DNA of 58,664 nt, taken from positions 1-58,664 of IMG/VR virus record IMGVR_UViG_3300037470_000304; one strand, 5' to 3'. Under the pieces are notes generated by a model. That model was not told the DNA's origin, searched no databases, and saw nothing but the letters and a program-made list of their open reading frames with translations. This document shows positions 8,685-31,040 of this stretch, in pieces; position 1 is the stretch's first letter, and every line of letters starts with the position of its first letter. The stretch is from a virus. A program made the translations under genes and the position numbers.

Positions 8685-11075
8685 TCCATCCTTACCGGCG
8701 TCCTGCCAAACCATCTCGGTCGTTTGACCGATCGATGCAGGCGACAAGCGAGCGCGCCTGTATTCCCGAATCATCGTCACATAATGTTGCCGCTCGGCTG
8801 CTGTCGTGGCTGATTTCTCCAGCCTGACCAGCAATGGAAACATCTGATCCGGATCCGTTGTCGTGAGGATGTTCAACCGCTCGCCCGCCGCCTTCTCGCC
8901 GATCTTGCGCGCCAGATAATTCGACAAATCCCCGGCCGCCTTCCAGAACCGGCCGGTCAGCCCATTCGCCGCCGCGCTGGACAATTCTTGCTCTCCAGCG
9001 ATGGCATTCTGCACCGGCGCCGTTCGTGAGCCGCGCATCACATCGTTGATGGTGTCGGTTGAGATCGCCTCGCCGCGCAGGTTGCGGAGCAGGCTCTCAC
9101 CCCGGCGCTGAACATCCTTGCCGGCAGATTTGGGGTAAAGCTCCTCTACGATCGCGGTGAAGCCTTCATTGTTGAATTGGCGGGCAGCGGCGTTACCGCG
9201 CGGAACGCGCAGAGCATCGTCTGCCATCTGCCGTTCAAAGCCGACGCGAAAGATTTCCTGCTGCGTCGGCGTCATCTTGCGGAAGTCACGGATACTTTGG
9301 CGCGATCGCTGATTGAGCGTCTTGCCGAGCGATGCGCCGTCAGAAAGCAACCGCTCCGATGTGCGGTTCTCTGAAAACCGCAGATCAGCGTCGGTGAGGT
9401 CTTTGTTATTCGCCCGCGCCGCGTTGTTGATGCGGGTGCGAAAGCCGGTTAACTCATCGGTCAGCGGTGTGGATTGGCCCATATTCTTGGAGTCAGCGAT
9501 CATCTGGTCCAGTTCGCGACGCTGGTCGAGGAACTTGCTGACATCCGTTATCGGCTGGCCAATCTTCTCATTTTTCGACGCCCGCGAGAACTCATCCTGC
9601 TGTTCGGCGACACGGAAACGGCGGCGCAATCTGGCGATTTCGTCATAGGACTTGCCATCGGTGATGGCTTTCTCCATCCGCTCGCGCGCTTCTTTGATCC
9701 GCAAGCCGGTCGCGGGCGATTGCGGTGGTTCACGCAATTCCGCCTCAAAGAACAGATCGGCGGCCTTATTCATCTGCTCGGCGATTGTGCCGCCACGCAC
9801 CACCGACCGGCGCCGCATCGTACCGATGACAGGCTTCAGGTCTATCGGCTTGGCGTTCTGCCTGGCAATGCCGTAAGCCTGCTGTTCCTCGGTCTTGGCG
9901 ATGCCATCGAGACGCAGCGCTTCCTCATCGTAATTGCGGCCCTTCACGCCGGTCTGCTGGATGGTGTCGGCCACGCGGCCGGGCTGCTGATATTGTCGAT
10001 CGGTGAGCCGCCTGGCCGACTCCGCATCGCCGCCAATCGCCATCGCGGTGCGGCCCTGATCCGCCAGAGGCTTGGCGCCGCCTTCGCCGCGCAGCTCCTT
10101 TGCAACATCGATGATGTTGCGCTGCAATGGATTGGCAGTCCGGTACCTGGTCAGATACCCGCCAACCGCGCCCTCGCTGACCCCGTAACGGGTGGCAATC
10201 GCCCGATTGGTCTCGCCAGCATAGGACCGGGATATCATATCGGCGATTTCAGGCTCGTTGATGCCACGCGCCTGGAAATTCGGGCTCGGCGCGGGCGTCA
10301 GTTCGATGCGAACCTGTTCTGGGCTGATCTTTGCCTCAACCATCTTGTCGGCGACATCATCAATCGCCGCCGCCTCCGAATTGACAGCGCGCTGCACCTG
10401 CCGGTTCGCATGGCGTGCACCTTCCTTGATGCCACCGCCAAGACGCGCGGCCGCGTTCACCGTGCTCGGCGCGGCAATGCCGCCAGCGAGGCCAGCGGCA
10501 AACTCGCCGGCGGGTCCAAGGTCGTTCTCGCGTGCAGCCCCTACACCCAGACCAGCGCCGACGCCCGAAATCAGGTCATTGCGAAAAGTCGCCTTCGGAG
10601 CCTGCGCAGCCTTGGCGAGAATTCCTCTGCCCGCCGCGATAGCCTGTGGCGCCAGCTTGGCGCCTTCGCGGATGATGGCGGCCGATGGCAGCACCGTGCC
10701 GCCCACGGCCTCACCGACCGATCCAGCGACGCGGCCCGCTGTCGTTGCGGCTTCCTCGCCGGAATTGGCAAGCGTCGCCACATGGATCGGCTTGAACACC
10801 TCATCGGGCAACGGTGCTTCACGGCCAAGCATTCCCGCGCCAGCGTTGATCAACTGGCCGGGCAAATTCATCACCGTGCCCGGCAGGTTGATCGTGGCGT
10901 CGATGCCGCGATTAAAACCCTGCGTGAGCTGGCTGGCGACATCGGCGAGCATCCCGCGCTTGGGCGGCTCCTGAAAACCGAATTTTCGGCGCATGGCGTC
11001 GCGCATGATTTCCGGCGTGGTGTCATCGGGGAATTCGACAGTCACGCCGTCCGGCCCCTCGACATTAATCGGCAT
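8670..11075 (-). CDS. Large internal virion/ejection-like protein (801 aa)
   Basis: Size and position between the M15 virion protein and the fibres. Contains an HTH-like stretch NRAIATRYGVSEGAVGGYLTRY. Confidence 0.5.
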   Translation of the reverse strand: MPINVEGPDGVTVEFPDDTTPEIMRDAMRRKFGFQEPPKRGMLADVASQLTQGFNRGIDATINLPGTVMNLPGQLINAGAGMLGREAPLPDEVFKPIHVATLANSGEEAATTAGRVAGSVGEAVGGTVLPSAAIIREGAKLAPQAIAAGRGILAKAAQAPKATFRNDLISGVGAGLGVGAARENDLGPAGEFAAGLAGGIAAPSTVNAAARLGGGIKEGARHANRQVQRAVNSEAAAIDDVADKMVEAKISPEQVRIELTPAPSPNFQARGINEPEIADMISRSYAGETNRAIATRYGVSEGAVGGYLTRYRTANPLQRNIIDVAKELRGEGGAKPLADQGRTAMAIGGDAESARRLTDRQYQQPGRVADTIQQTGVKGRNYDEEALRLDGIAKTEEQQAYGIARQNAKPIDLKPVIGTMRRRSVVRGGTIAEQMNKAADLFFEAELREPPQSPATGLRIKEARERMEKAITDGKSYDEIARLRRRFRVAEQQDEFSRASKNEKIGQPITDVSKFLDQRRELDQMIADSKNMGQSTPLTDELTGFRTRINNAARANNKDLTDADLRFSENRTSERLLSDGASLGKTLNQRSRQSIRDFRKMTPTQQEIFRVGFERQMADDALRVPRGNAAARQFNNEGFTAIVEELYPKSAGKDVQRRGESLLRNLRGEAISTDTINDVMRGSRTAPVQNAIAGEQELSSAAANGLTGRFWKAAGDLSNYLARKIGEKAAGERLNILTTTDPDQMFPLLVRLEKSATTAAERQHYVTMIREYRRARLSPASIGQTTEMVWQDAGKDGSRAP

Positions 11076-12751
11076 TATTCGATCTCACCCGTTTGCGGGT
11101 TGAAACGAAGGGTTTTGACGGGCTTGGGCTGGTCCGGGCTTGGCGCGGCTTGTGGCCTGCCGCCCGCCGCCTTTTTCTCCAGGTCGGAGTAGGACGCGCG
11201 CATCATCTGTTCCAGCGTGCCTAGCGCAGCCAGATACTGCTCCTTCGACTGCGCAACGTCGAGGTTGGCAATAGCCTGCTCGCCCTTGGCGCCTTCGAAG
11301 TCGGTGACCTGTCCCGCGCCCTTCAGAGCATCGCGCGCGACCATGAAACTTTGCCCAGTCGCCTGCTTGTTCTTGGCCTGAAAATCGTAACTGTCCGTGC
11401 CGGGTATCCAACTGCGCGGATCGAACACATTCGATGCGCCCGTGCCAACGTTGAGACCTGGGTGAGCGCGCAGCTCGCCGATGGTCTTGAAGGCGTTGTC
11501 CACCATGGTCTTGGCGGCAGGCAGCGCGACTTGCGCCTGACCACCCAGCTTACCGACTTCCTCGGCGGCTTCCTTGCCAGCGATGTTTTTCGCAATAGCC
11601 GGTCCCGCCGCGCCGGTCTTCCGGTTCAGCCCGGTGAATTCCGTGCCAGTGTCCTTGAAGTCGTATCCGGGAGCCCACTTCGCCCCCTCGTCAAGCTCAA
11701 CGTCCTTGCGTCCACCCGCCTTGCTCATCTGTGTGTAGCGGAGGTTGCCGTCCTTGTCGGTGTAGGGAACCGGAGTGGTGCCGTATTCGGCCGCATCTGC
11801 GCCGCTCTGTTCCGTGCCGGGCACAATCTGCCCCGTCATGGTATCCACGACGCCCTGCTTGGATGGACGAAAACGACCGACCTGGGATTGCGGCTTGGCC
11901 TGCGCCACCTTCAGCGCCACGCCCTGTTTTACCAGATCATCATCGCCGGTCGACATCAGCGTTCTGGCCATGCTGTCGGTATCGTTCGCGCCCATCAGCG
12001 CTTGCGCGAGGGAGCCCTTATAAGCGGACTGCTGCTTATCCGCCTTGTCGCTGAGCGTGTAGCCCAGCGCCAGATCGCCGGCCGAGTTCAGCAAATCGCC
12101 CCAGCCCTTGGGCTTGGCTCCGGCAGCCGAGGCAAGCAGCGCATCGGCGAGCTTCGAATAGCGCATGTTGGGCGCGGTGAGCGGCACCGGGCCGCCAGCA
12201 ATGGGCGCGCCGCCGATTGGTGAGGCCATGCTACGAGGTTCTCCGTTGTTCACTGCGTTGACGGCGTTACCCGCCATGTGGCTGGATGCGGGCGCCCCAT
12301 AAGCCGGCAGCCCGTCCACGATGCGCGACGCCTCGAAATGCATAGGATCCGGGTTGGAAAACGTGCCTCCCCATACCAGTCCATGTTTACCTGCTAACTC
12401 TCCAACATCTGGCGGCAGGTTATGCTTTGCCGAACCGCGCGGATTGATATCCCAGTTCAGATCGATGGCATTGCCGAAAGCATGTTGGGAGAGCCGAGGC
12501 GATCCGGCGATGGTGCGATTATTATATCCCCCCGATGTCTTCGGGTTGAGCAAATAGCCCTTGCCGCCCAGATCGGAGAGGAAGGCATTGAACTGCGGCG
12601 CGACCTTCCGGGCAACGGTGAATTTGGCGCCATTGGGTCCAGCGATCGTCACCAGATCGGCCTGATCGCCCGGCGATAGACCGAGCGCCGCACCCTGGTT
12701 TGGCCGCAGACCCGCAAAAGCCGTGAACGAGCGGTTGGTCAAATCAGCCAT
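11075..12751 (-). CDS. Virion-associated protein with N-terminal M15 peptidase domain
   Basis: SQHAFGNAID (H-x6-D) and DPMHFE zinc-ligand motifs in the first ~150 aa. Long extension. Lies in the tail/ejection module. Confidence 0.7.
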   Translation of the reverse strand: MADLTNRSFTAFAGLRPNQGAALGLSPGDQADLVTIAGPNGAKFTVARKVAPQFNAFLSDLGGKGYLLNPKTSGGYNNRTIAGSPRLSQHAFGNAIDLNWDINPRGSAKHNLPPDVGELAGKHGLVWGGTFSNPDPMHFEASRIVDGLPAYGAPASSHMAGNAVNAVNNGEPRSMASPIGGAPIAGGPVPLTAPNMRYSKLADALLASAAGAKPKGWGDLLNSAGDLALGYTLSDKADKQQSAYKGSLAQALMGANDTDSMARTLMSTGDDDLVKQGVALKVAQAKPQSQVGRFRPSKQGVVDTMTGQIVPGTEQSGADAAEYGTTPVPYTDKDGNLRYTQMSKAGGRKDVELDEGAKWAPGYDFKDTGTEFTGLNRKTGAAGPAIAKNIAGKEAAEEVGKLGGQAQVALPAAKTMVDNAFKTIGELRAHPGLNVGTGASNVFDPRSWIPGTDSYDFQAKNKQATGQSFMVARDALKGAGQVTDFEGAKGEQAIANLDVAQSKEQYLAALGTLEQMMRASYSDLEKKAAGGRPQAAPSPDQPKPVKTLRFNPQTGEIE

Positions 12752-13630: not shown

Positions 13631-14059
13631 TTATTCCCCTATCCAACGGCATTCGCGCCGTAACATGCCAAGCAAAAGCGCATCCTTGCCCGTGCCGAAG
13701 CCGTCACGAACGCATCCCTCGATTTGAAATCCCAGACGCCGGCTGGCATCCAATGCACGCTTGTTGCCTCGCGACGTCAGCGCGGTGATGCGGACACAGC
13801 CCAATTGCTGAAACGGATAGCCGAACAGCACGCGCAGCGTCTTCCGGGTCATCCAGCCCGGTTCGCCCGCCCAATGGGTGCGTATGTCGGCTTGGTCCGG
13901 CTCCATTTTGCGATATTCGGCATAGATCACCCCGCCGATGATCCGGCCGCCTCGGGTCACGCCTATGGCCTCGTAATCCGCTCGCGGCGGCTCTCGCATA
14001 TCGCGGATGCGGGAGGCAACCCAGGCGGCGACAAACTCGCGCTGACCGGCGAGGATCAT
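13631..14059 (-). CDS. GNAT-family N-acetyltransferase
   Basis: 142 aa. ...ITALTSRGNKRALDASRRLGFQIEG... resembles the acetyl-CoA-binding motif A region of RimJ/RimL-like GNATs. Confidence 0.65.
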   Translation of the reverse strand: MILAGQREFVAAWVASRIRDMREPPRADYEAIGVTRGGRIIGGVIYAEYRKMEPDQADIRTHWAGEPGWMTRKTLRVLFGYPFQQLGCVRITALTSRGNKRALDASRRLGFQIEGCVRDGFGTGKDALLLGMLRRECRWIGE

Positions 14060-16986: not shown

Positions 16987-17244
16987 CTACGCGGACGGTT
17001 CGGCGCGTGAGTTGCGAGCGGCTACTATCCCATCCAAGGCATCCGCCAAATCGTTAGTGGATATAAGCCCATCGGGCAAAGCATCATGCGCTATTGCCTC
17101 TTTGAGACGAAGGTGCACCCATTGCCCCATCCCAGGCACAACAGCCCAGCAATAATGGGCCGGGATCTTTCCCTTCACGATCATCTCGCCATCGGTCGTT
17201 ATTTTGACCCACGCATAAAAAGTTTTGTCGCTTCGGTAAGTCAT
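16987..17244 (-). CDS. Hypothetical 85-aa protein
   Basis: Start trimmed to MTYRSDKTF. The upstream part of the track ORF overlaps 17250..17948 out of frame. Confidence 0.45.
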   Translation of the reverse strand: MTYRSDKTFYAWVKITTDGEMIVKGKIPAHYCWAVVPGMGQWVHLRLKEAIAHDALPDGLISTNDLADALDGIVAARNSRAEPSA

Positions 17245-17249
17245 CGCGG

Positions 17250-17948
17250 TCAGCCCCAATTCCCGTCCGGAATGCCGGTCGGCCGGATACGCGGCACGCC
17301 GGAAACATCGATCAGCGGCTTGGGCGTGTCGTCGAATTGCAGCGCCATCAGCGCGGCCAGATAATCGGCCTTCTCCTCGGCGAAGGGCAGCCCCTTGCGG
17401 GCGCGGAAACGGTAGCGCATACCGAGCACCGCCAGATCCCGGTCGAGCCGCCACAGATCGCTGTCGGCCACCCAGTTTTCCTGGGCCGTGCCGGCGCTGG
17501 TGGTGGAATAATAACGGCTGTAATAGTCGTAGCCGATATTTTGCACATCCGTCGGCGTCGGGGTGATGTTCAGATAGCCGCCGGAGACGTGGAAGGCGTA
17601 GCGGATGCCCAGCACCACGATGCCGCGCGTCAGCGCCGCCCAATCGATGCCGTTGACCGGGCCGATCAACGGCTGCTCCTCCGAGGTGTTCCAGAAGGTG
17701 AGATTGGCGAAGCGCTGATAATCGGCGGGAAGGCTGTAAGCCGAAGTCGCGGCGACCGTGGCGAAGGTGTAATCGTCCTTCAACGCCTGCCATTTGACCT
17801 CGCGCGCCAGTTCGCGGCCGATCTGGGCGGCGATGTTCTTCAGCAGGATCGCGGTCGGATCGGTGTTGCCAACGATCGTCGAGGGCGTCTCGAAGCCATC
17901 CACGCCCTCAAGCGCGTCGGTGCAAAGCTGCAGCAGCGTGGCGGCCAT
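17250..17948 (-). CDS. Head-tail adaptor / tail tubular-A-like structural protein
   Basis: 232-aa ORF in the structural operon. Assignment is by position and size only. Confidence 0.4.
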   Translation of the reverse strand: MAATLLQLCTDALEGVDGFETPSTIVGNTDPTAILLKNIAAQIGRELAREVKWQALKDDYTFATVAATSAYSLPADYQRFANLTFWNTSEEQPLIGPVNGIDWAALTRGIVVLGIRYAFHVSGGYLNITPTPTDVQNIGYDYYSRYYSTTSAGTAQENWVADSDLWRLDRDLAVLGMRYRFRARKGLPFAEEKADYLAALMALQFDDTPKPLIDVSGVPRIRPTGIPDGNWG

Positions 17949-17953
17949 GGGGC

Positions 17954-18619
17954 TTACGCCGCCTGCCGGCGCTGGCGGCCGGACGTCACGGCCGGATCGG
18001 GCTCGGAGCCGGCATGACCGACCATGGCGCGGGCGCGCTCCACATAGTCCAGCACGTAATTGGCCCTGAGCGCCATCTTGTGCTGATGCAGTTTGGCGGT
18101 CAGGCCTGCGATTTTCTCCTCATCGAATGCCGCGAATTCCCGCACCGTGCGCATGCCCATGGTCTGAATCACCTGCACCACTTCCGGGGGAACGCTGTCG
18201 AGCAGCACCAGCGGGATTTCCCCGCGCTCGCGCAACAGCTTCAGCTCATATTCCTGGAACACGCCGGGAAAGCGGTCCTTCAGCTTGCGGATTTCGAACG
18301 GCTTGACCGCCGTGACGCTGACGTCCTTGGACTGGCGCGCGGGGTGCCCGTATTTGTGCTGCAGCATCAGCTTGGGTTCGCCCAGCGGCTCGTCATAGGC
18401 GTCGAGCTGGGCAACCTCCACCAGCCGGCCCTTGACGACGGTCTTGGTCCAGTCGCCGTCTTCCTCGCGGTGCCAATCGGATTTCAGCGCGCTGTCATGC
18501 CATTCGGTGAGGTTTTTGACCTTGACGTTCTTGACGTCGGCGGGGTGCGGCACATCCAGGGTTTCCCCCTGTGCCTGGTTCATGATGCCCTGAAGGGCCT
18601 CGATCATCTGGTTCGACAT
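17954..18619 (-). CDS. Structural-module protein (unknown role)
   Basis: 221-aa ORF on the late strand between the capsid and tail genes. Confidence 0.5.
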   Translation of the reverse strand: MSNQMIEALQGIMNQAQGETLDVPHPADVKNVKVKNLTEWHDSALKSDWHREEDGDWTKTVVKGRLVEVAQLDAYDEPLGEPKLMLQHKYGHPARQSKDVSVTAVKPFEIRKLKDRFPGVFQEYELKLLRERGEIPLVLLDSVPPEVVQVIQTMGMRTVREFAAFDEEKIAGLTAKLHQHKMALRANYVLDYVERARAMVGHAGSEPDPAVTSGRQRRQAA

Positions 18620-18631
18620 GATGGCTTCGTC

Positions 18632-18934
18632 CTAAAAAGTGGCGTTGATCTGCGTTGGGGTGATGAAGACGAAGAACGCCGCGCGCCCGGCGGGCAGCGT
18701 CAGCGCCGTGTTGGCCGTCGTGCCGTTGAAGCTGGAGCCGACCGGGGGATAGACGAGCAGCGAGTCCGTCGTGTCGCCATTGGCGATGGTGCGTATCTCA
18801 GCGCCATTGCCTGGGCTGAGAATGACGCCCTCGCCCGCCACGACGCTGGGGACGAGGACATGATCGGCGACACACACCGATGCAGTCGCCTGGGTCGTGC
18901 CGGCGGATGGCTGGGCTACATTGCTGGTCATCAA
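18632..18934 (-). CDS. Small beta-rich protein with Ser/Thr-rich N-terminus
   Basis: MMTSNVAQPSAGTTQATASV... 4-nt overlap with the Maf-like/MTase gene. Confidence 0.5.
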   Translation of the reverse strand: MMTSNVAQPSAGTTQATASVCVADHVLVPSVVAGEGVILSPGNGAEIRTIANGDTTDSLLVYPPVGSSFNGTTANTALTLPAGRAAFFVFITPTQINATF

Positions 18935-20313
18935 TGATCCTTCCGGGAGACCACGAATTGGGAATTGTCACCGCGATCGACAGAGAACGAGACGGCATAG
19001 CCTTTGTGCTCGAACAGCATTCGCCAGCCTTCATGATCCAGCACGCTGAGATGCAGGATCTGGCCGATATGAACGCCCATCGCATCGGGAACGGTCGAAA
19101 TCTGGAAAAACACCGTCTTGGCGGACGCCATGATGTTGTCGATGACGGCCTCCACCTGATCAGGAGGCACATGCTCCATCACGTCGGCGCACAAGCCGTA
19201 AGACGCGCGGAACGGCATGGGCTTGGACATATCCAGCGTGTAAAATCGCAAGCCGCGCGCCGGATGGTCGAGACAGTTCGACGCGAAATCGATGGCAATG
19301 ACGTCGCAACCGCGCCCCTCGATTTTCATCGCCGCGCGTCCGGTGCCGCAGCCGAAATCGATTACCAGGCCTTCCGGCTTGACGCGATCGAAGAAGGCGT
19401 CAACCGCATCCTCGCCCGGCGACCATCGTCGGTATTCCGGCAGCGACCACATCGCCTCGTATTTCTGCTGTTCTTCCATGCCCTCAAAGCCGGCGCGCCA
19501 CATGGCCGGCAGGATGCCGTCGCCATGCACTTCGATGGTGCAGCCTTGGCTTTGCAGATGGCGGGCAGCACCGAAGAAAGTCTTGCACTGGCCGCGCATG
19601 GTCAGGGAAATCTGATACGCCACGCCCTTGAAGGACATGTCGATTACGGCTTCCTCGTCATTGAGCGCTTGCGGCATGGCGTGGTGCTTGTCGCCGCGAT
19701 AGCTGCTGTCATAGCCGTAAGCCGCGAATTTGCGGTAGCCCATGGCGAAAGCGAGATACAGCGCCGTACAGCCGATCGATGAACCGCCGCCGATCAGGCA
19801 ATAATCGTCGTCATAGTCCGGCAGCACGTCGTCGATGCCGTCGATGATCATGTGCCAGAGGGTGGCGCGCGTTTTTCGGCCAAAGCAAAGCGGGCTGACC
19901 TGGCTGGCGAACAGATGGTGGTCAGCCGGCCCGATCAGATCGGCCGTCGCGTCGCGGGCGTCGGCGATGACCTGATAAGCAGGGCGAATGCCGTTCTCCG
20001 CCAGAAACCCGGCCGCTGCATTGAGCCCGAACACCGTCTCGCCGCGCGCCGCTCTCTCGCGAATCTCATCGAGTGTATCGGCTAGGCTTGGGCCCGATCC
20101 GCATAGCACGGCGACGCGATCATGTGGCTCGGCCAGCTTCAGCCATCCCTTGTGGGCCAGCGAATTGACGCGAATGTTCTCCAGCAATTGCTCATCGGTG
20201 GTGTTGCAGATCACGGCCAAAGGCAGTAGCAACGGCCACTCGGCGCCATCGTTACGATGTTCGATGGTAAGACGGGTGATAGGCGAAGGGGCGATTTTCA
20301 AATCGAACTCCAA
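18931..20313 (-). CDS. Fusion protein: DUF115/MptE-like (Maf-type glycosyltransferase-like) N-domain plus class I SAM methyltransferase C-domain
   Basis: VLCGSGPSL...GLNAAAGFLAENGIRPAYQVIADA and CLIGGGSSIGCTALYLAFAMGYRKFAAYGYD (DUF115-like). VIDFGCGTGRAAMKIEGRGCDVIAIDF (SAM motif I). Confidence 0.6.
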   Translation of the reverse strand: MEFDLKIAPSPITRLTIEHRNDGAEWPLLLPLAVICNTTDEQLLENIRVNSLAHKGWLKLAEPHDRVAVLCGSGPSLADTLDEIRERAARGETVFGLNAAAGFLAENGIRPAYQVIADARDATADLIGPADHHLFASQVSPLCFGRKTRATLWHMIIDGIDDVLPDYDDDYCLIGGGSSIGCTALYLAFAMGYRKFAAYGYDSSYRGDKHHAMPQALNDEEAVIDMSFKGVAYQISLTMRGQCKTFFGAARHLQSQGCTIEVHGDGILPAMWRAGFEGMEEQQKYEAMWSLPEYRRWSPGEDAVDAFFDRVKPEGLVIDFGCGTGRAAMKIEGRGCDVIAIDFASNCLDHPARGLRFYTLDMSKPMPFRASYGLCADVMEHVPPDQVEAVIDNIMASAKTVFFQISTVPDAMGVHIGQILHLSVLDHEGWRMLFEHKGYAVSFSVDRGDNSQFVVSRKDH

Positions 20314-20324
20314 AAGGAGGGCAA

Positions 20325-20732
20325 GTGGCTAGAATCTACATTCCCACGCCAGAGCAAGAAGCAGGCTGGGCTGCTTGGGTCGCTGACAGGCCGCCAGCCG
20401 TGCGCGCAGTCGCAGAACGTTTCGATCTGTGGTCGCTGTATCGGCTAAAGAGCAGCGGCCACCGTGTGACAATCTACAGTTTTCGCGAAAGTGATCCGGT
20501 CACAGTGACCGTGAACGTTCTCGGCGATTTCAATGCGTTAATTTTTGAGCGCCAAGTGTTTGGCGTCGCCCCTGACGATCTGGAGCCATGTGACCTGCCG
20601 TCAGCAGATGAGTTGGTCGGCTCCGTGATCCCAGCCGGGGAAGTTGAAGAAAACATTGACGCGCTTCGCGTCATCGTGCGTCCCGACCTATGGAACATGG
20701 GCGAAGACGGCAAAGCGCATCGCAAGCACTAA
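20325..20732 (+). CDS. Hypothetical 135-aa protein (opposite-strand moron)
   Basis: AGGAGG RBS upstream of a GTG start. Convergent with the decoration gene. Confidence 0.55.
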   Translation: MARIYIPTPEQEAGWAAWVADRPPAVRAVAERFDLWSLYRLKSSGHRVTIYSFRESDPVTVTVNVLGDFNALIFERQVFGVAPDDLEPCDLPSADELVGSVIPAGEVEENIDALRVIVRPDLWNMGEDGKAHRKH

Positions 20733-20736
20733 ATCA

Positions 20737-20772
20737 GCAAACGGGGCGGGGACGATCCCCCGCCCCGTTTGC
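20737..20772. terminator. Bidirectional hairpin terminator
   Basis: gcaaacggggcgggg-acgat-ccccgccccgtttgc, a 15-bp perfect stem between convergent genes. Confidence 0.7.
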
Positions 20773-20774
20773 TG

Positions 20775-21281
20775 TCAGGTGATGCGGCCCTGGATGCGCG
20801 GACGATTAATCACGCAAAGGCACGTGGTTACATCGGATTTCGCCGAGGCGACCGCCGCGAGCAGGAAGCCCTGGATTTCCTTGCCGGTGCCGGAGGCGAT
20901 GACGAAGCCGGGGCTGGATGCCGAATTCAGCCCAAGCGCGATGCCGGAGGCAAAGGATGATGCGGCCTTCTTGGCCACGACCGCGACGCCGGAGATCTGA
21001 TACCAGCCATAGAGAGCGGCCGTGTTTGCCGACATCGCGATCGCGACATTGCGCGGCAAGCGCTTGCCGCCAACCGCAAGCGTGGTCTGCCCGGTCGTTG
21101 AGTTGAACGACACCACCGAACCGACGATGGTCGAGGCAACGCCGATCAGATAGATGAACTCGCCGCCGCCATAGGTCGGATCGTTGGCCCTCACGATCAG
21201 GCCAACGGGATGTTTCTCCGTCGTGGACGTGTCCGCGATCGGCTGCGACCCCAGAATAGGGTCGATGATAGTGTAAGCCAT
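20775..21281 (-). CDS. Capsid decoration/cement-like protein
   Basis: 168-aa beta-rich ORF immediately downstream of the major capsid gene. Confidence 0.45.
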   Translation of the reverse strand: MAYTIIDPILGSQPIADTSTTEKHPVGLIVRANDPTYGGGEFIYLIGVASTIVGSVVSFNSTTGQTTLAVGGKRLPRNVAIAMSANTAALYGWYQISGVAVVAKKAASSFASGIALGLNSASSPGFVIASGTGKEIQGFLLAAVASAKSDVTTCLCVINRPRIQGRIT

Positions 21282-21306
21282 TGTGTGTTTTCCCTATTCC
21301 CGGCGC

Positions 21307-22272
21307 TTACGCGATGATGACGAAGTTGCGGCGGCGCGACCGGATGGTCAGGTTGCCCGTCCACCACATCGGCACCGCGAACATGTCCTGATTGACCGGC
21401 TTGACCTTGTCGCCTTGCGTGAAGTTGCGATCCGGGTCGGGACGGAACAGCACCGTCGAGGTGTTGATGCCGTACATGCGCGTCGCCGAGAAGTTCGGGT
21501 CATGCATCACCATCGCCGTCTTGTAGCGATAGGCGTCGAAACCGGCCTTACCCAGCTCGGCATCCATGAAGCGCTGATTGGCCTGAAGCGCGCCCTCGAA
21601 GTAGCCGAAATAGGTCGTGCCGCCGAGGACGAGATCGACCTTTTCAGTGCCGCGATTGGTGTTCAGGAACGACGTATTCAGCGCGGTCAGAATGGTGGCC
21701 GTGCCCGGCGTCAGCGAATTGACGCTGAAGTCGAACACGTAGTTGCGCCACCAGCTATTGGTGGCAACCGAGGCGTCGATACCGCCCACAGTGCCGGTGG
21801 TGGGATCGTCGGCGATCAGATGCTGCAAGCCGCCGATCGCCTTGCCGGCGCTCTCGGTGTTGGCATAGGCAAGCGCCGCGCCGATACCGTTCTGCATTTT
21901 CGCATCGGCGGCCGACAGTTTGCCGTCGATCAGCGAATGCATTTTGGCCTTACCCTTGTTCTGGGTAATCTCCAGGCCGTTCATGGTGATCAGTGCATAA
22001 TGCTGTTTCCAGGCGAAGTTCGCCGAGGTCAGCACGTCGGTGTCGGAGGTGGACAGCACCTCGGAGCCGGAATACCAGCCGCCCGCCGCACTCTCGGCGA
22101 ACAGGACGTTTTCGAGGATTTCCGAGCCGCCATCGGCGGGCTTGGTGTTGCCCTTCTTCTTCAGATACATCAGCAGCGCGTTGTTGCCGGTGATGTTGTC
22201 TTCCAGCGTCGATGAATAGTTGGCGATCGACGCGGTTAGCACCTGGGTGTAGGTGCTGTTCGGCGTAGCCAT
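21307..22272 (-). CDS. Major capsid protein (HK97-fold type)
   Basis: 321 aa, placed after the scaffold-like gene. The composition and C-terminal ...MWWTGNLTIRS... pattern are typical of podoviral capsid proteins. Confidence 0.7.
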   Translation of the reverse strand: MATPNSTYTQVLTASIANYSSTLEDNITGNNALLMYLKKKGNTKPADGGSEILENVLFAESAAGGWYSGSEVLSTSDTDVLTSANFAWKQHYALITMNGLEITQNKGKAKMHSLIDGKLSAADAKMQNGIGAALAYANTESAGKAIGGLQHLIADDPTTGTVGGIDASVATNSWWRNYVFDFSVNSLTPGTATILTALNTSFLNTNRGTEKVDLVLGGTTYFGYFEGALQANQRFMDAELGKAGFDAYRYKTAMVMHDPNFSATRMYGINTSTVLFRPDPDRNFTQGDKVKPVNQDMFAVPMWWTGNLTIRSRRRNFVIIA

Positions 22273-22294
22273 TTGGGTGAGATCCTAAAGGGGT

Positions 22295-23467
22295 TTACGC
22301 GACCCCGTGATCCCTCATCGCCTTGTTGATAGCGTCCTCGCGCGTCATCCGGCCGACCCCCGCCTGTCCGCTGGCTCCGGGAGAGCCTTTGCGGGTTGCC
22401 GAGACCTGGGCCTTCTTGACGGCGTTCTGCGCCTCGCGCTCGCTCATGCGCTTTTCAAAGTCGGCGTCGATGAGCTGCTGGCGAATTTCGGGATTGAGGT
22501 AAAGCGCTTGGGTGTAGGCCTGCTCCAAAGCCTCGGCGGGCTTGGAATGCAGCGTGCTTCTCGTGGCAGGGTCGGAAACCAGTCGAATGACATCGTTCAT
22601 GACCGCCGGGAGATGGGGATATTTCGGGTTGCCGTCGTCATCAATGGCGTTTTCAAACGCATCGCATTGCTGGGCGAACCAGGTGTTGAAACGCGTCTGC
22701 TCCGAGCGCTGCTGCTCGGCGCTTTGGCGCTGCCTGGAGGTCTCGACGGCCTCCATTCTGGCCAGTCGTTCACGCAGCTCCACGACGACCGGGTCCACCC
22801 ACTCCTGTTCGGTGGGCGGCGTGGCGGGGTCCTGGACGGCGGGTGAGCCTGCGAACAGATGCTCGGGCTTGACGCCGGTGCGCGCGATGACGGCTTTCAA
22901 GAATGCGACAGGATCGCGGTTGAGCGCATCATGCTGCTGAATGAGGTATCGGACGGCGCCGATATCATCCAGGCCAGCCGACTGCATCTGCTGCCGGTGA
23001 TCGTCGTTGAACAGGCTGATGACAGCCTCTGCGGTGCGCCGGAATTGCGCGTTTTCCTGCTGCGATCGCGTGACCGCGACGTTGGCTTCCTTGTTGCGCT
23101 CCAGGATGATGCGCTTGGCTTCGTCGGGGAGCGTGCCGAATTGGTCGCGCCTGTCCTTGGGCCAATGTTTCGGCGCTTCCAATGCGTCTTTCGACGTTGG
23201 CAAGGCCGCACGGTCCTCGGCAGGGCGCGACGGGTCGGGTGTTTCGAGCTCGGCGCCCTTTTCAGGGTCTTGAGCAGTCTTAACGCTAGCGTCTATCGGC
23301 GCGTCGTCACGCGCCGGTTCTTCAGTCGCGCGGATACCCCCGGCCGAGGGTATATCGTCGCTGCTGAATTCGTCGGGGAATGCCGCGAATGCTGCGTCAA
23401 TCGCAGCAGAGCGGCCAGCCGTCGAGGCCGCAGACTCCGGACGCGGAGCGCGATCACCTTCGTTCAT
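22295..23467 (-). CDS. Scaffolding-like protein
   Basis: 390-aa acidic, helical, low-complexity ORF directly upstream of the capsid gene. Confidence 0.5.
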   Translation of the reverse strand: MNEGDRAPRPESAASTAGRSAAIDAAFAAFPDEFSSDDIPSAGGIRATEEPARDDAPIDASVKTAQDPEKGAELETPDPSRPAEDRAALPTSKDALEAPKHWPKDRRDQFGTLPDEAKRIILERNKEANVAVTRSQQENAQFRRTAEAVISLFNDDHRQQMQSAGLDDIGAVRYLIQQHDALNRDPVAFLKAVIARTGVKPEHLFAGSPAVQDPATPPTEQEWVDPVVVELRERLARMEAVETSRQRQSAEQQRSEQTRFNTWFAQQCDAFENAIDDDGNPKYPHLPAVMNDVIRLVSDPATRSTLHSKPAEALEQAYTQALYLNPEIRQQLIDADFEKRMSEREAQNAVKKAQVSATRKGSPGASGQAGVGRMTREDAINKAMRDHGVA

Positions 23468-23496
23468 GGAATGTCCTTGAGGTTATGCGGTAAACG

Positions 23497-23829
23497 TCAG
23501 GCCCAGCCGCCTTCGACGCCAGCGGCAAGCTTCTCGCGCTCGGCGCGCTTGGCCTCGTTGTTGGCGGCGACAGTGCCCACCGGAAAATCGTTGCCGGTCT
23601 GGTGGCAACCGAAGCTGCGCTCGAAGCTGCGCAGCTCCGAGCGAGATGAGATGATGTGCGTGCGCTCGGGATTGGCGACGTTCAGGAAGGGCGCGATATC
23701 GCCCATGTGATAGGGGCTGGCCAGATCGGAGCGGCGGTCTGGCGCGGGTTCGGCGCGGCACGGCGGGCGCGGCGGCAGCGGGTTGGCGCGCATGAAGCTC
23801 AGGTCGAGGCCGGACAGGCAGATGGGCAT
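23497..23829 (-). CDS. Hypothetical protein
   Basis: 110-aa ORF on the late strand. Start uncertain. Confidence 0.4.
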   Translation of the reverse strand: MPICLSGLDLSFMRANPLPPRPPCRAEPAPDRRSDLASPYHMGDIAPFLNVANPERTHIISSRSELRSFERSFGCHQTGNDFPVGTVAANNEAKRAEREKLAAGVEGGWA

Positions 23830-27495: not shown

Positions 27496-28725
27496 TCAGG
27501 CCATCCCCTCGACGCGGCCATCAGCCCCGCGCGCGATACCGCGCTTGCCCGATTTCAGCCGCGCCAGCATCGTCGGCAGATCGCCGTCGCTCTGCCCAAT
27601 CTCCACACCCATCGCGCGCCCGGTCTTGGGATCGCGGCTCACCTTGCGCGGCGCAGTCATATGGCCGACCACGGCGGTGACCGCATCCGTCATCTCATCC
27701 TGATTGCCGCGTATCTCCTGCAGCACGGAGACGATCTGCACTTGATTGGCTGACAGCTCCCGCATGGAGGCGGCGAACTGCGAGGCCAGTTCCGTGATCT
27801 GCTGGGCAACGCTGTCCTCGATCTCGGCCTTGGCGGTCTTGCCGCCTTCGCCCTTCATCTGTTCGCCTTCCAGGCTGCGGCGCGCCTGCTGCTCGTCCCG
27901 ATCCATGGCAAGACGCGATTGTGTTTCATGCGTCTTCAGCTCGCGGTCCTGGCGCTTGCCCTGGATGTCCTCAAGCGCGACCTGGCGCTGGAATTGGCGA
28001 TCGTCGTCCTGGCTAGCCCGGTTGGCCTGCGCTTCGTCGATGCGCATCGCCACATCCTGCTGCTTGACCCCCATGTCGAAGGCGGCGCTTTCCTTCTTGA
28101 ACGACAGCTCCTGCATCTTGATGCCCAGCTCGGCTCGTTTGAATTCAAGCTCGGCGGCAAGCTGCTGCTGCTTCATCGCGAACTCGCTCTCGGCCTGCTT
28201 GACCTTGAGCTGCGCGTCCTGCTGTTTGAACGCCATGTCGGCTTGCTGGGCCTGCGCGCTCGCCTGGGCTTCCTGCTGCTTCATGGCCATCTCAGCCTTG
28301 GCGGCCTCGGCTTCCGGATTGGGCTGCGGCGGGGTGTTCTGGATCTGGTCGAAGGCGTCGCCGAGCTGCTCCTCGAACTGCCGGCCCGGCTTGAACCTGC
28401 TCGACACGAATACCGCTAGTTCCTTGGCGAATGGGGCGAGCGTCGGGTTGCCCTGGATCGCAGGTATCCAGAGCTGCATCATCTCGGTCATCGCCTTGAC
28501 GTATTCGATGCTTTGCGCCTTCTCGGCCTCTTCATCCTCGAAGGCGGTGGCGTCGGTCTCAATGTCGATGCTGTAATTGCGCCGGTCGTCCGAGCGCAGG
28601 ATGCCGGAGACCTCCTCCCAGGAACAGGCCTCGGCGATCAGCTTGTCTTGTTCGAGCTGTTCGGGTGTGGGCATCGGCGGCATGGCTGGCGGTGCGGCGC
28701 CGTTCATCGGCATGGGAGGCATCAC
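27496..28725 (-). CDS. Pro/Met-rich N-terminus, globular segment and long Gln/Ala/Glu coiled coil (scaffold-like or portal-extension-like)
   Basis: 409 aa. MMPPMPMNGAAPPAMPPMP... then ...YSIDIETDATAF..., then a long coiled coil. Confidence 0.5.
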   Translation of the reverse strand: MMPPMPMNGAAPPAMPPMPTPEQLEQDKLIAEACSWEEVSGILRSDDRRNYSIDIETDATAFEDEEAEKAQSIEYVKAMTEMMQLWIPAIQGNPTLAPFAKELAVFVSSRFKPGRQFEEQLGDAFDQIQNTPPQPNPEAEAAKAEMAMKQQEAQASAQAQQADMAFKQQDAQLKVKQAESEFAMKQQQLAAELEFKRAELGIKMQELSFKKESAAFDMGVKQQDVAMRIDEAQANRASQDDDRQFQRQVALEDIQGKRQDRELKTHETQSRLAMDRDEQQARRSLEGEQMKGEGGKTAKAEIEDSVAQQITELASQFAASMRELSANQVQIVSVLQEIRGNQDEMTDAVTAVVGHMTAPRKVSRDPKTGRAMGVEIGQSDGDLPTMLARLKSGKRGIARGADGRVEGMA

Positions 28726-28982
28726 CGCGCGCTCACCCGGATGCAGGCGCCAACATGGTGCAAGCTCTCGACGGGGAACAGATGCGTGATCGTGCTTCCA
28801 TCCGCCTCCGTGATCTCACAAAGCCTATCATCGCCGCTCACTTCAAGCACCGTCATGGGGTGACGTTCACCGCGATTGACAACGCGCGTTCCCATTGGGA
28901 GCACGGTATAGCCGTGGCACGGCTCGCCTGTCTCATCATGAAACCCGCGATGATAACGCGCGCGTTCACAGCATGAGGTCAC
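28722..28982 (-). CDS. Hypothetical 86-aa protein
   Basis: ATGA overlaps on both sides. Cys/His-rich N-terminus. Confidence 0.5.
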   Translation of the reverse strand: MTSCCERARYHRGFHDETGEPCHGYTVLPMGTRVVNRGERHPMTVLEVSGDDRLCEITEADGSTITHLFPVESLHHVGACIRVSAR

Positions 28983-29281
28983 GCGGCTACCGCCTTAACA
29001 TCGTCCGCCCCATCTTCGCGCACGAAGCACTCATCCGCGATGACGATGTTGACGAACCCGCCGGCGCCAGGAGATTGCGAGCGCAACTTGCCAAGCGCGA
29101 ATTCAGCGAACGCAGGGTCTAAAGCGATGACGCGCAGGTAGTTGCATGCAGCCTGATCCGGAGGTTTGCGGCCCTGCTCCCAATCGCGCAGCGTTCCCAA
29201 AGGAAGATTGAAACGCTCGGCGAACGCGGCTTGCGTAAGCCGCATGCCCGCGCGAAGCGCCTTGATAGCTTCTGGCGTCAC
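28979..29281 (-). CDS. XRE/YiaG-type HTH protein (antitoxin-like)
   Basis: IKALRAGMRLTQAAFAERFNLPLGTLRDWEQGRKPPDQAACNYLRVIALDP matches the MqsA/YiaG-style HTH pattern. Confidence 0.6.
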   Translation of the reverse strand: MTPEAIKALRAGMRLTQAAFAERFNLPLGTLRDWEQGRKPPDQAACNYLRVIALDPAFAEFALGKLRSQSPGAGGFVNIVIADECFVREDGADDVKAVAA

Positions 29282-29496
29282 GCGGCTCTATCCCGCAGCT
29301 TGATAACCACCTTTGCGGTGTCGCGATAGAAGTACCAGAGCGGCACAATGTAATGATCTTCTGGAAGGTAGCTGAATTGGCCAACTGGCGAGCAGCCTGT
29401 GGAGAGCACGTACCGGGTCACTTTCGCATCCGGATTGAGTGCGTGCCTCTCACAGAGTTCTCGGGCAACGGCTTCGATATCATCCTCGGCGCTCAT
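29278..29496 (-). CDS. Hypothetical 72-aa protein
   Basis: ATGA overlap with the portal stop and with the HTH gene. Confidence 0.5.
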   Translation of the reverse strand: MSAEDDIEAVARELCERHALNPDAKVTRYVLSTGCSPVGQFSYLPEDHYIVPLWYFYRDTAKVVIKLRDRAA

Positions 29497-31040
29497 GCGG
29501 CTATCCCATTCATCGGAGGTCCGCCATTGTGACCCATCGGCGCGGGCAGCGGCCCGCCCGGCGGCGGCCCCGGCCCCTGCTGCATCTGTTGCGCCTGCAT
29601 CTGTTTCATCTTCTCCGCCATGGCGAGCCGCTGCCTGGCCGCCGCGCGCTCGCTCTCGGGCGGCAACAGGATGCCGGTCATCTGGCTCAATTGCTGAGGC
29701 TCGAAATGCTCGGCGATGATCTCGGCCTTCATCCGGTAGAGGTTGCGCACGAAGGTCTGCACCTCCTTCTGCCGCTTCTGCATGCGCTGCGATCCGAACC
29801 GGGCCTTGAGCTTTTGCGCACCAAGCGTCTCATTGGGGTCGGTCGCGCCGCGAATGACGTCGGATATGCCCGTTACCTCATAGATTGACTGGATCAGGCT
29901 GACGGCGCGCTGGGCGAGCTGCTGAATGGCCATCGCGATCGGCTCAAGGTCGCGGACCTGAAACGCGGCCTTCAGCCCGCCGCCACTGGCCAGGGCGGCC
30001 ATGTTCTTGAACGGCACGAATTGGCTATCGCTCAAATTGCCCAGCGATGACAGTTCATCGTCGGCCGACCCGTCATAGATGCCGCAATATTTGAGCGCCT
30101 CGACAAGCACATAAATGCGCTGGTTGAGCCGGTCCAGCTCGGCGGCCTGATCCTGATACTGGCAATATTCGGGTTGCGGGATCAGCCGGTCCGGCGTCTT
30201 GACGCCATACAGCGGCTTTGGACAGGGGAAGAAGCCTTCCAGCCGATAGGGATCGTCGATGCGCTCGATCTCCCAGTCATAGCCTTCAGCGATGTAAATG
30301 CGGGTGCGCGAGATGCTGTCCCAAATCTCCCAGATTTTGGCCCGCTTGAAGTCGCCAGCGCCCTGGTCTTCGGAGCGTCCTTCACCCTCCTTCAGCGTGA
30401 AGTTGAACGGGACTTTCTGCTTATCGAGGTCGAGGTCCGGGAATTGCTGCTTGACGTCGTCCCTGGTGAACAGATGCTGGCGCGCCACCCAGGGCACCTG
30501 CCGCCATTTCTTGCCCGGCCCATGGGTCCATTCATCATAGGGCACGTGGCAGACCTTGACCTGCTGATAGCCGAGCGTCTCGGCGCCGCCTTCCTCCACG
30601 ATCTCGGCGTCATATTCGATCCAGCACTGGCCGCGCCCACCAAGCAGATAGTCGGTGACACCGTCCTCGATCTCGCCGGCCACATCATAGCGATTGGCGC
30701 AGGCGACCAGCGCGCGCTCCATCACCAGCGCGGCGACGCGCGCGATCTTGTTGGCCTTGCCGGGCTGGGGAAAGGTCCGGCGCACATCGGGGCTGCCAAG
30801 CTCGGCGAACAGCGTGGATTTGAGCACTTCGGTGTTCGACCACAGGATCGAGATGCGGCGGTCGACCTCGCCTTCGTCGCGGTCACGCTCATCCAGATAG
30901 CGGCAGACGACGCTTTCGGCGCGCTTGCGCCATTTGTCCTCACGCTTGAGACTGGCGTCGATCTGGTTGTGCCAATAGCGCGCCGATTTGGGGGGCTCGC
31001 CTTGTTCCCTGGCCTCGCTCTCGGTCAGTTCCTGGGTCAC
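29493..31040 (-). CDS. Portal protein
   Basis: 515 aa directly downstream of terL. ...GATDPNETLGAQKLK... region is typical of podoviral portals. Gln/Pro-rich tail. Confidence 0.75.
   Translation of the reverse strand: MTQELTESEAREQGEPPKSARYWHNQIDASLKREDKWRKRAESVVCRYLDERDRDEGEVDRRISILWSNTEVLKSTLFAELGSPDVRRTFPQPGKANKIARVAALVMERALVACANRYDVAGEIEDGVTDYLLGGRGQCWIEYDAEIVEEGGAETLGYQQVKVCHVPYDEWTHGPGKKWRQVPWVARQHLFTRDDVKQQFPDLDLDKQKVPFNFTLKEGEGRSEDQGAGDFKRAKIWEIWDSISRTRIYIAEGYDWEIERIDDPYRLEGFFPCPKPLYGVKTPDRLIPQPEYCQYQDQAAELDRLNQRIYVLVEALKYCGIYDGSADDELSSLGNLSDSQFVPFKNMAALASGGGLKAAFQVRDLEPIAMAIQQLAQRAVSLIQSIYEVTGISDVIRGATDPNETLGAQKLKARFGSQRMQKRQKEVQTFVRNLYRMKAEIIAEHFEPQQLSQMTGILLPPESERAAARQRLAMAEKMKQMQAQQMQQGPGPPPGGPLPAPMGHNGGPPMNGIAA

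Follow-up and report, generated by a model that had tools for sequence, protein, structure and literature searches.

The locus considered here raises the question of what a protein that joins a putative sugar transferase to a putative methyltransferase is doing among the capsid genes of a phage. The locus is part of the viral record IMGVR_UViG_3300037470_000304 of IMG/VR, whose whole length of 58,664 nucleotides was analyzed and will be called the window, and the gene under study occupies positions 18931-20313 of its minus strand. By its gene content the window is a temperate, Mx8-like podovirus genome. A preliminary description, made from the DNA letters alone, proposed that the gene product glycosylates and/or methylates a virion protein, i.e., the capsid protein, the decoration protein, or a small Ser/Thr-rich neighbor, by using sugars activated by the host. 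Of the checks proposed with it, all those that can be made by computation had a favorable outcome. This reading is supported in silico by the domains of the protein, the Maf-type fold predicted for its N-terminal half, the slot that its gene occupies in the head module, the glycan-related enzymes that share this slot in other phages, and its genetic coupling to the decoration protein.

The enzyme gene and its two domains

The open reading frame (ORF) at 18931-20313 (minus strand) is a genuine gene, with a GC content at third codon positions (GC3) of 0.74 and a codon-position GC pattern that matches the neighboring genes. Called mechanically, it has 460 amino acids (aa) and a TTG start. The true start is likely the TTG at 20301, giving 456 aa, because GGAG is read 6 nt upstream of it, and because an identical 456-aa protein (P0001) was called from this codon independently in another assembly. 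All the motifs that had been quoted for the two halves are present in the 460-aa ORF. Those of the N-terminal half are VLCGSGPSL (aa 69-77), GLNAAAGFL (aa 96-104), IRPAYQVIADA (aa 109-119), and CLIGGGSS...YGYD (aa 172-202), while VIDFGCGTG...IDF (aa 317-343) marks the C-terminal half.

The assignment of these halves to the DUF115/MptE-like and S-adenosylmethionine (SAM)-dependent methyltransferase families, as first proposed, was borne out by Pfam matches that exceed the curated thresholds in both cases. The MptE-like/Maf-type glycosyltransferase-like domain is predicted to span aa 14-278 (19480-20274, minus strand) and matches PF01973 (MptE-like, formerly DUF115/Maf_flag10) at aa 44-206 with E = 1.2e-13 and 51.7 bits, the cutoff being 34.6. 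The class I SAM-dependent methyltransferase domain, predicted at aa 279-458 (18940-19479, minus strand) with DFGCGTG as motif I, matches Methyltransf_23 with 32 bits and Methyltransf_25 with 31.3 bits at aa 302-440, the cutoff being 27 for both. NCBIfam has no model for the N-terminal domain.

Regarding the fold, a phmmer search against solved structures placed the Maf protein of Magnetospirillum magneticum (5mu5_A) first, with E = 3.9e-4 over aa 69-217 of the enzyme, a match that spans only residues 276-430 of the 666-residue 5mu5 chain. An AlphaFold2 model built with 61 homologs has a mean predicted local distance difference test (pLDDT) score of 88.9. The Foldseek search of such a model, which the preliminary description had suggested, returned more than 500 matches, mostly SAM methyltransferases, with the Maf glycosyltransferase 5mu5 as the top PDB match (E = 1.1e-8), followed by generic SAM methyltransferases on the C-half.

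In the Magnetospirillum enzyme (MmMaf), E324 and D415 are reported as critical for activity in bioRxiv 10.1101/2020.06.03.131540, which cites the structure paper. The phmmer alignment pairs D118 of the phage enzyme (19960-19962, minus strand) with MmMaf E324, and D202 (19708-19710, minus strand) with MmMaf D415, so that these two are the candidate catalytic residues. Both are invariant in the alignment of the 61 homologs, as are H211 and the GSGPS loop. On the SAM side, D319, G321, G323, T324, G325, D342, D377, E380, and H381 are invariant; the methyltransferase domain conserves DFGCGTG, D342, D361, and the motif CxDVMEH. Taken together, sequence and model indicate that the N-half is the conserved Maf-type catalytic core and not a full Maf protein, and that the C-half is a class I methyltransferase. 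We do not class the enzyme as a Maf because the N- and C-terminal Maf domains are absent, and what remains outside the Maf-like core is a short N-terminal hairpin and the methyltransferase.

A fixed slot, its variable partners, and the decoration protein

The enzyme belongs to a large family. A word-indexed search gave 770 homologs, the best 120 of which have the same ~455-aa architecture at 48-80% identity, and an exhaustive search of 1.84 billion sequences, each representing a cluster at 50% identity, gave 2999 matches with E<=1e-3, 1562 with E<=1e-10, and 345 with E<=1e-30. An IMG/VR scan seeded with the enzyme confirmed at least 437 relatives, and species-representative genomes yielded 93 confirmed stretches, of which the 13 collinear full-length copies and several reversed fusions are all on contigs of metagenome-assembled genomes. 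The protein search of GenBank phages returned no full-length copy and one partial match, to the methyltransferase domain only, and a DNA search with positions 17000-23500 against the same phages found nothing, so that no cultured phage can be taken as a model. Members from uncultured phages are auto-named "MptE-like" in BFVD, the names of family members in their source records are absent or generic, and a search of the literature on DUF115/MptE-like phage genes found nothing relevant.

For the comparison of loci, ORFs were called mechanically in all the fetched loci (labeled L with a number) and matched to the proteins of the window; several of these loci share a contig or lie on contigs that are closely related, and sequences were deduplicated at 100% identity only. 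The gene order in the Mx8-like loci is that of the major capsid protein (MCP), the decoration protein, the enzyme, a gp50-like protein of 180-290 aa, the adaptor, and a gp52-like protein. In 141 loci a gene with an MptE-like domain is placed between those of the decoration protein and the adaptor, and the survey of related phages that had been proposed found the enzyme adjoining the genes of capsid and decoration protein in over 140 related loci. The same synteny without the enzyme occurs in Mx8, Mx9, and 80 Mx8-type loci. Identity across these loci is 40-53% for the enzyme and 45-60% for the decoration protein, and only 27-40% for the MCP.

The constant element of this slot is the MptE-like domain, and its partners vary. 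A Methyltransf_23/25-type domain is the partner in 123 loci, with that gene alone in the slot in 118, and about 7 loci carry the MptE-like domain with no partner. Elsewhere the partner is Methyltransf_24 (L273, L294, and L311), an FkbM-type Methyltransf_21 (L305), or an N-terminal Glycos_transf_2 domain (L297 and L314). The arrangement is reversed in L017, with the methyltransferase first, and split into two genes in L133; a second MptE gene is found in L100, L103, and L258, and a triple MptE-MT-MptE fusion in P0010 and P0011 (MT, methyltransferase). Additional genes in the slot include a polysaccharide pyruvyl transferase (L266) and an NAD-dependent sugar epimerase/dehydratase (L314), while most of the additional ORFs have no Pfam match. 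This mixture of three unrelated methyltransferase families, extra transferases, a pyruvyl transferase, and an epimerase points to a glycan-assembly toolkit. Such partners are our strongest argument that the MptE-like domain would act here as a glycosyltransferase, and that the methyltransferase is most likely directed at a sugar.

As a separate observation, the variant with Glycos_transf_2 and MptE-like domains in L297 (3635-5791) has, at aa 489-545, a weak NCBIfam match to the Kdo (3-deoxy-D-manno-oct-2-ulosonic acid) III transferase WaaZ (E = 0.0028, far under the cutoff), to be taken only as a lead pointing to Kdo as the donor.

The gene that precedes the enzyme on the late strand (20775-21281, minus strand) encodes a 168-aa protein, here called type A, that matches the virion structural protein family phrog_29386 (E = 2.7e-24), and whose N-half is 54% identical to Mx8 gp49, annotated as a major virion structural protein. 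Its AlphaFold2 model (pLDDT 81) is all-beta, and the top PDB matches of this model in Foldseek are all capsid cement or decoration proteins, from Sf11, Pam3, HFTV1, and TW1 to the base of phi29 gp8.5 and lambda gpD; a profile search of PDB sequences with the decoration family found nothing. Gene position, homology to Mx8 gp49, and these marginal fold matches together make it a probable capsid decoration (cement) protein.

The presence of the enzyme goes with one type of this protein. Loci without the enzyme were gathered by a scan seeded with the Mx8-type decoration protein, which gave 80 loci, none with the enzyme, and the reciprocal scan seeded with the decoration protein of the window gave 62 loci with it, 6 without, and 5 undetermined. 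An unsupervised split of 174 distinct decoration sequences into two clusters matches enzyme presence in 173 cases (112/112 positive and 61/62 negative). The cluster purity of 0.994 compares with 0.56-0.70 for the MCP, the adaptor, and the gp52-like nozzle protein (2-8 clusters), and the concordance of nearest-neighbor labels, again 0.994, with 0.88-0.91. Moreover, 16 of 165 alignment columns of the decoration protein discriminate loci with and without the enzyme, and none do so in the MCP (0/325), the adaptor (0/240), or the gp52-like protein (0/519).

This coupling resides in the C-half of the decoration protein, aa 97-168 (20778-20993, minus strand), which co-varies and co-transfers with the enzyme. 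In pairs of phages that differ in the enzyme and have MCPs 80-90% identical, the decoration proteins are just 41-48% identical, and the drop is limited to the C-half (identity 0.20-0.39, vs 0.49-0.71 for the N-half). Identities grouped by enzyme status show a partition in the C-half and none in the N-half: for the N-half they are 0.55 among positives, 0.62 among negatives, and 0.52 between positives and negatives, and for the C-half 0.43, 0.53, and 0.24, respectively. When L278, which has the enzyme, is compared by blastn with L308, which lacks it, the two align collinearly (71-74%) across the genes of scaffold and MCP and about the first 96 decoration codons, lose similarity over the decoration C-half and the enzyme, and regain it in the gp50-like gene; other pairs behave alike. 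Distances between enzymes correlate (Spearman) at 0.59 with those of the decoration C-half, 0.45 with the N-half, 0.27 with the adaptor, and 0.15 with the MCP, the value for MCP and adaptor being 0.74. Because the breakpoints enclose both elements, because C-half identity splits with enzyme presence, and because of these distance correlations, the unit of exchange is, on the sequence evidence, the decoration C-half plus the enzyme.

Ser or Thr occurs at position 146 in 97% of enzyme-positive and 0% of enzyme-negative sequences, at position 153 in 94% and 2%, and at position 132 in 94% and 39%. The type-A-specific hydroxyl residues T132 (20886-20888), S146 (20844-20846), and T153 (20823-20825), all on the minus strand, are therefore candidate acceptor sites. 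The type-A C-half is also poorer in acidic residues. K104, which at first resembled a type-specific invariant Lys (98% vs 2%), was rejected as an alignment shift, the negatives having a Lys in the adjoining column (74%) and a gap at 104.

Among the three virion proteins first named as targets, the decoration protein is the best acceptor candidate because its C-half is coupled to the enzyme; the capsid protein lacks any such coupling, and the Ser/Thr-rich neighbor, here p100, would be second at best. This protein of 99/100 aa (18632-18934, minus strand), whose Ser/Thr-rich N-terminus is visible in the sequence as had been described, is N-terminally shortened with respect to relatives of ~120 aa. 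It has no match in Pfam, PHROGs, or NCBIfam, and a profile search of PDB sequences was also empty. An iterative search found its family in 41/142 enzyme-positive loci and in 1/81 negative ones (Fisher p=2e-8). Its place is either immediately behind the enzyme, sometimes in two tandem copies, or some kb further upstream, in the interval from portal to scaffold. Since most enzyme-positive phages lack p100, the main target must be another protein, and a role as second decoration protein or second acceptor is plausible. Regarding its junction with the enzyme gene, which reads CAT TGA TGA CC (TGATG/TTGA overlap), translational coupling stands with either start, and the 4-nt overlap initially noted applies only with the TTG start; the ATG one codon beyond, chosen by the independent gene call, gives an overlap of 1 nt (TGATG).

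A candidate mechanism and its rivals

We think that the gene probably encodes a soluble, late-expressed, two-domain enzyme that modifies the virion by glycosylating the C-half of the decoration protein and then methylating the sugar. Late in infection, its Maf-type (GT42/Cst-II-like) core would bind the exposed C-terminal subdomain of the decoration protein and transfer a host-activated sugar to Ser/Thr of the outward-facing type-A C-half, with p100 possibly serving as an additional acceptor. The fused class I methyltransferase would then cap the transferred sugar using SAM. We infer catalysis, the donor sugar, the acceptor sites (T132, S146, and T153), the methylation of sugar in place of protein, and any benefit to the phage. 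Together with the acceptor half of its neighbor, the decoration gene, the enzyme gene would form one mobile cassette that is gained, lost, and diversified among Mx8-like phages. Such diversification, by a second transferase, GT2, methyltransferases of other families, pyruvyl transferase, or epimerase, would lead to differing capsid glycan surfaces.

As for the donor, CMP-Kdo, a sugar linked to cytidine monophosphate (CMP), is made by every host that produces lipopolysaccharide (LPS). No family for sugar-nucleotide biosynthesis was found in any scanned ORF of the window, so any sugar donor must be host-made. Maf enzymes accept CMP-linked N-acetylneuraminic acid (CMP-Neu5Ac) and CMP-Kdo, as reported in PMC11339370 and bioRxiv 10.1101/2020.06.03.131540. 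Since Maf enzymes use such donors, CMP-Kdo included, and the phage has no donor pathway, a CMP-linked ulosonic acid, e.g., Kdo or one of the pseudaminic/legionaminic type, would be the most economical and most plausible donor. We advance the wider proposal more tentatively, as a possibility with the odds somewhat against it: the mobile cassette of acceptor domain and enzyme would coat the capsids of a large uncultured Mx8-like group with Gram-negative hosts in methylated sialic-acid-like or Kdo sugars, drawn from the CMP-sugar pool of the host and diversified by swaps of methyltransferase, GT2, pyruvyl transferase, and second transferase.

Several observations weigh against this mechanism. The preliminary description placed the enzyme directly after the capsid and decoration genes, and it is indeed the next gene on the late strand; in this phage, however, an antisense ORF and a hairpin part the two. 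The ORF (135 aa, 20325-20732, plus strand) has its own GGAGG-GTG start and no match in Pfam, PHROGs, or NCBIfam. Of the loci fetched, only L001, in which this phage was assembled independently, also has it, and it is possibly a moron or an anti-defense gene. The hairpin, a perfect GC-rich stem of 13 bp at 20739-20770, is terminator-like and sits where the decoration gene and the 135-aa ORF converge, ahead of the enzyme gene in the late-strand direction, though the consensus terminator scan did not call it because of its short T-run. With these two elements and no sigma-70-like promoter found around the enzyme gene, late-operon expression of the gene in this phage is an assumption; in relatives the gene usually begins ~45 bp past the decoration gene.

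Other points on the same side concern the enzyme and its proposed acceptor. The enzyme has no flanking Maf domains and no flagellin-like acceptor is involved, and PF01973 also includes the pyrophosphokinase MptE, so that the fold alone leaves the chemistry unfixed. The fold matches of the decoration protein are marginal (E from 1e-3 to 1e-2, template-modeling score ~0.5), and its C-half has no strictly invariant Ser/Thr. The sampling of enzyme-negative loci was non-random, as these were retrieved by similarity to Mx8 gp49, although the reciprocal scan gave the same answer. One locus, L291 (5001-7070), is the sole type-A locus without an enzyme gene between the decoration and adaptor genes, and may represent a recent loss; it would provide a natural control. 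Finally, co-transfer of adjoining genes may be mere linkage; the breakpoint inside the decoration gene argues otherwise, but it is cleanly mapped in few pairs only.

Among the alternatives, the one that survives best keeps both domains active and changes the target of the second. The methyltransferase would act on protein, modifying side chains in the decoration protein or in p100 much as FliB-type enzymes methylate flagellin lysines, and the MptE-like domain would either add a sugar independently or mainly bind the acceptor. Lys and Arg are more frequent in the C-half of type-A decoration proteins (0.087 vs 0.047), which suits this alternative, but no type-specific Lys column is left once the shift between K103 and K104 is allowed for. 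Similarly, standalone methyltransferase homologs directly follow the MCP gene in Pseudoxanthomonas, Variovorax, and Lysobacter prophages, and yet a protein with MptE motifs again comes after the methyltransferase there, so the pair persists. That the methyltransferase domain has only generic fold matches also suits this alternative, whereas the alternation of three unrelated methyltransferase families and a pyruvyl transferase beside a constant MptE-like domain, which in some phages stands alone, is better explained by sugar decoration. We regard protein methylation as unlikely, and methylation of the transferred sugar remains our preferred reading.

A second alternative would direct the enzyme at flagellin, pilin, LPS, or a similar structure of the host, for lysogenic conversion or superinfection exclusion, its place in the head module being incidental. 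Known Maf enzymes do glycosylate flagellins, but the flanking Maf domains thought to handle flagellin are absent here. The phage is temperate, with an integrase and an S24 repressor, but conversion genes normally lie near att and the integrase (50818-51924). In this phage the enzyme gene is set apart from that of the decoration protein by the hairpin and the antisense ORF, and against this stands its co-directional position in the late structural operon of more than 140 loci, where the ~45-bp spacing is typical. Since the enzyme co-varies with the decoration C-half and with nothing related to the host, we judge this alternative to be quite improbable.

Very improbable, in our view, is a metabolic moron unrelated to the virion, with a pyrophosphokinase or other small-molecule activity in the MptE-like domain and a metabolite or nucleic acid as methyltransferase substrate. 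The Pfam family takes its name from the archaeal 6-hydroxymethylpterin diphosphokinase, UniProt auto-annotates phage members accordingly, and the closest methyltransferase folds are small-molecule enzymes. As for archaeal MptE itself, the Pfam domain is in common, the phage context is a head module with no pterin genes, and the Foldseek matches included no MptE structure whose active site could be set beside that of the enzyme. The best match by sequence and by fold is Maf and not a kinase. Moreover, the acidic residues of Maf catalysis are invariant, the partners include GT2, pyruvyl transferase, and epimerase, and the strict head-module slot and the coupling to a decoration subtype also speak against such an enzyme. 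Least probable of all is a non-catalytic assembly factor, i.e., a protein that retains enzyme folds but would only chaperone or scaffold the type-A decoration protein, which would suit the tight coupling to one decoration subtype but not the invariance of catalytic and cofactor residues in both domains across 61 homologs at ~50% identity, the conservation of the enzyme above that of the capsid protein, or the diverse catalytic partner domains of the slot.

The phage genome, related systems, and what they may mean

The head and tail genes around the enzyme follow the Mx8/Mx9 plan. The large terminase gene lies at 31069-32412 on the late strand. The portal appears to be split into two pieces on the minus strand, 29493-31040 and 27496-28725, which match positions 9-510 and 505-709 of phrog_12082. 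Between these pieces are small ORFs at 29278-29496 (72 aa) and 28979-29281 (100 aa, HTH_3), a pair that could be a toxin-antitoxin-like or regulatory module. The portal is a single ORF of 700-800 aa in most relatives, and is found in two ORFs also in L136, L200, and L212. A probable scaffold gene, on the late strand in the head module, precedes the gene of the MCP (21307-22272, minus strand), which matches phrog_9953 (E=2.3e-74) and is 34-38% identical to the MCPs of Mx8 and Mx9. On its other side, the slot is bounded by a gp50-like protein of 221 aa (17954-18619, minus strand), recognized by synteny with Mx8 gp50; in Mx8 and almost every relative, the corresponding place is taken by an ORF of 180-290 aa. 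It is followed by an SU10-type adaptor (17250-17948, late strand) and then a 504-aa, nozzle-like homolog of Mx8 gp52, also on the late strand.

The remaining late-strand genes encode a GNAT-like protein, ejection and tail-fiber proteins, and an endolysin. The GNAT-like protein (142 aa, 13631-14059, minus strand) is a homolog of Mx8 gp53, annotated "acyl-CoA N-acyltransferase", and is conserved in the tail module of many relatives (41 of the 91 loci first compared). Its only library match is a weak one to NCBIfam AAC(6') (E=0.0021), and it could be a second virion-modifying enzyme, i.e., an acetyltransferase. M15-type peptidase domains occur in two proteins, namely a 558-aa ejection-type protein (11075-12751, minus strand) that matches phrog_2534, "released from the phage upon host infection", and an endolysin with PG_binding_1 and Peptidase_M15_4 domains (1686-2402, minus strand).

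The early and lysogeny genes include a tyrosine integrase (50818-51924, plus strand), an S24 repressor, RecT, ThyX, a helicase, and a GcrA-like cell-cycle regulator (38435-39004, minus strand). Because this last protein is encoded, an alphaproteobacterial host is plausible. An outer-membrane beta-barrel protein is encoded after the integrase (54531-55352, plus strand), so that the final ~6 kb of the window may belong to the host flank or carry genes for lysogenic conversion. No tRNA genes were found in the window.

The pairing of the two domains extends beyond the Mx8-like phages. Reversed fusions of 474-539 aa, with the methyltransferase preceding the MptE-like domain, occur in other virion modules (L015-L021; e.g., L017:9779-11899 and L020:1235-4128). 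They are always followed by a conserved, Ser/Thr/Ala-rich phrog_644 protein of 150-165 aa, which may be the acceptor in these phages, and the fusion of L020 is preceded by a major head protein. In siphovirus-type prophages of the cultured bacteria Lysobacter dokdonensis DS-58, Variovorax fucosicus, and Pseudoxanthomonas sacheonensis DSM 19373 (L033, L034, and L036; ~8900-11300 in each), a Gp13-like MCP comes first, followed by a methyltransferase-domain homolog, a 227-aa protein, and a DnaT_2 head-tail connector. The 227-aa protein is probably MptE-like, as it has the MptE-like motifs in order, though with weak statistics (Pfam E=0.0018, under the cutoff; hhalign E=0.017, probability 2.7%), and a hidden Markov model built from the MptE-like domain did not match it. 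Being in cultured hosts, these prophages offer a tractable experimental entry.

To our knowledge, glycosylation of phage virions has been demonstrated only for a few actinobacteriophages, i.e., mycobacteriophages, and giant viruses also have it. In Che8 and other cluster F1 mycobacteriophages, phage glycosyltransferases modify virion proteins with host activated sugars (Freeman et al. 2023, as cited in PMC11256854 and PMC12691614). As these citing papers present them, those enzymes are conventional glycosyltransferases, encoded near the 3' end of the genome in Maravista, their hosts are actinobacteria, and the target is the capsid protein itself; neither a fused methyltransferase nor a cassette of acceptor and enzyme is known to have been described for them. 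Closer in design is A064R of the chlorovirus PBCV-1, with two glycosyltransferase domains and a C-terminal class I SAM methyltransferase that O-methylates the terminal sugar just added to the capsid glycan (PMC9614988). Like the phage enzyme as read here, A064R is a virus-encoded fusion of glycosyltransferase and methyltransferase, and the MptE-MT-MptE proteins P0010 and P0011 mirror this design. A064R, however, belongs to a eukaryotic giant virus with N-linked glycans, has GT-A and novel folds, and uses rhamnose linked to uridine diphosphate; we take the likeness to be one of design and not of ancestry.

The closest enzymes are the Maf O-glycosyltransferases that add nonulosonic acids to flagellin, from Magnetospirillum magneticum (5mu5), Clostridium botulinum, and Geobacillus. 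Common to them and the phage enzyme are the central PF01973 domain with its GT42/Cst-II-like fold and the acidic residues equivalent to MmMaf E324/D415. Maf enzymes are cytoplasmic, and the phage enzyme would likewise modify Ser/Thr of an exposed structural protein before assembly via CMP-ulosonic acids. In Maf, an N-terminal Rossmann-like and a C-terminal helical domain flank the catalytic domain (PMC11339370), whereas the phage enzyme is the catalytic core only, with a fused methyltransferase in place of the flanking domains, and sequence identity is low (the phmmer match cited above). The proposed acceptor also differs, being the decoration protein. No flagellin or nonulosonic-acid biosynthesis families were found among the scanned ORFs of the window, and the neighbors of the enzyme are capsid genes.

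The Mx8/Mx9 head module has the same gene order as the window, from gp48 (MCP) and gp49 (major virion protein) through gp50, gp51, gp52, and gp53, with homologous MCP, decoration N-half, adaptor, nozzle-like, and GNAT-like proteins. It differs in having a type-B decoration C-half and no enzyme gene between gp49 and gp50. Virion glycosylation as such is already known, and what sets the present case apart, as predicted from the genes, is the enzyme class, the host group, and the target.

If the reading is correct, an enzyme class so far only flagellar would here be provided with a dedicated acceptor domain, and capsid glycosylation would be common in environmental phages of Gram-negative hosts, with at least 345 clusters at 50% identity and at least 437 IMG/VR contigs. 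If, in addition, the coating is indeed drawn from CMP-sugars, it would be the first Maf-type protein O-ulosonylation outside flagella and the first "sialylation" system of a phage capsid. The enzyme and its acceptor would also constitute a compact two-gene system for the site-directed O-glycosylation and methylation of a self-assembling capsid protein, of relevance to glycoengineering and to surface traits of phages such as adhesion, recognition by immune systems or predators, and stability.

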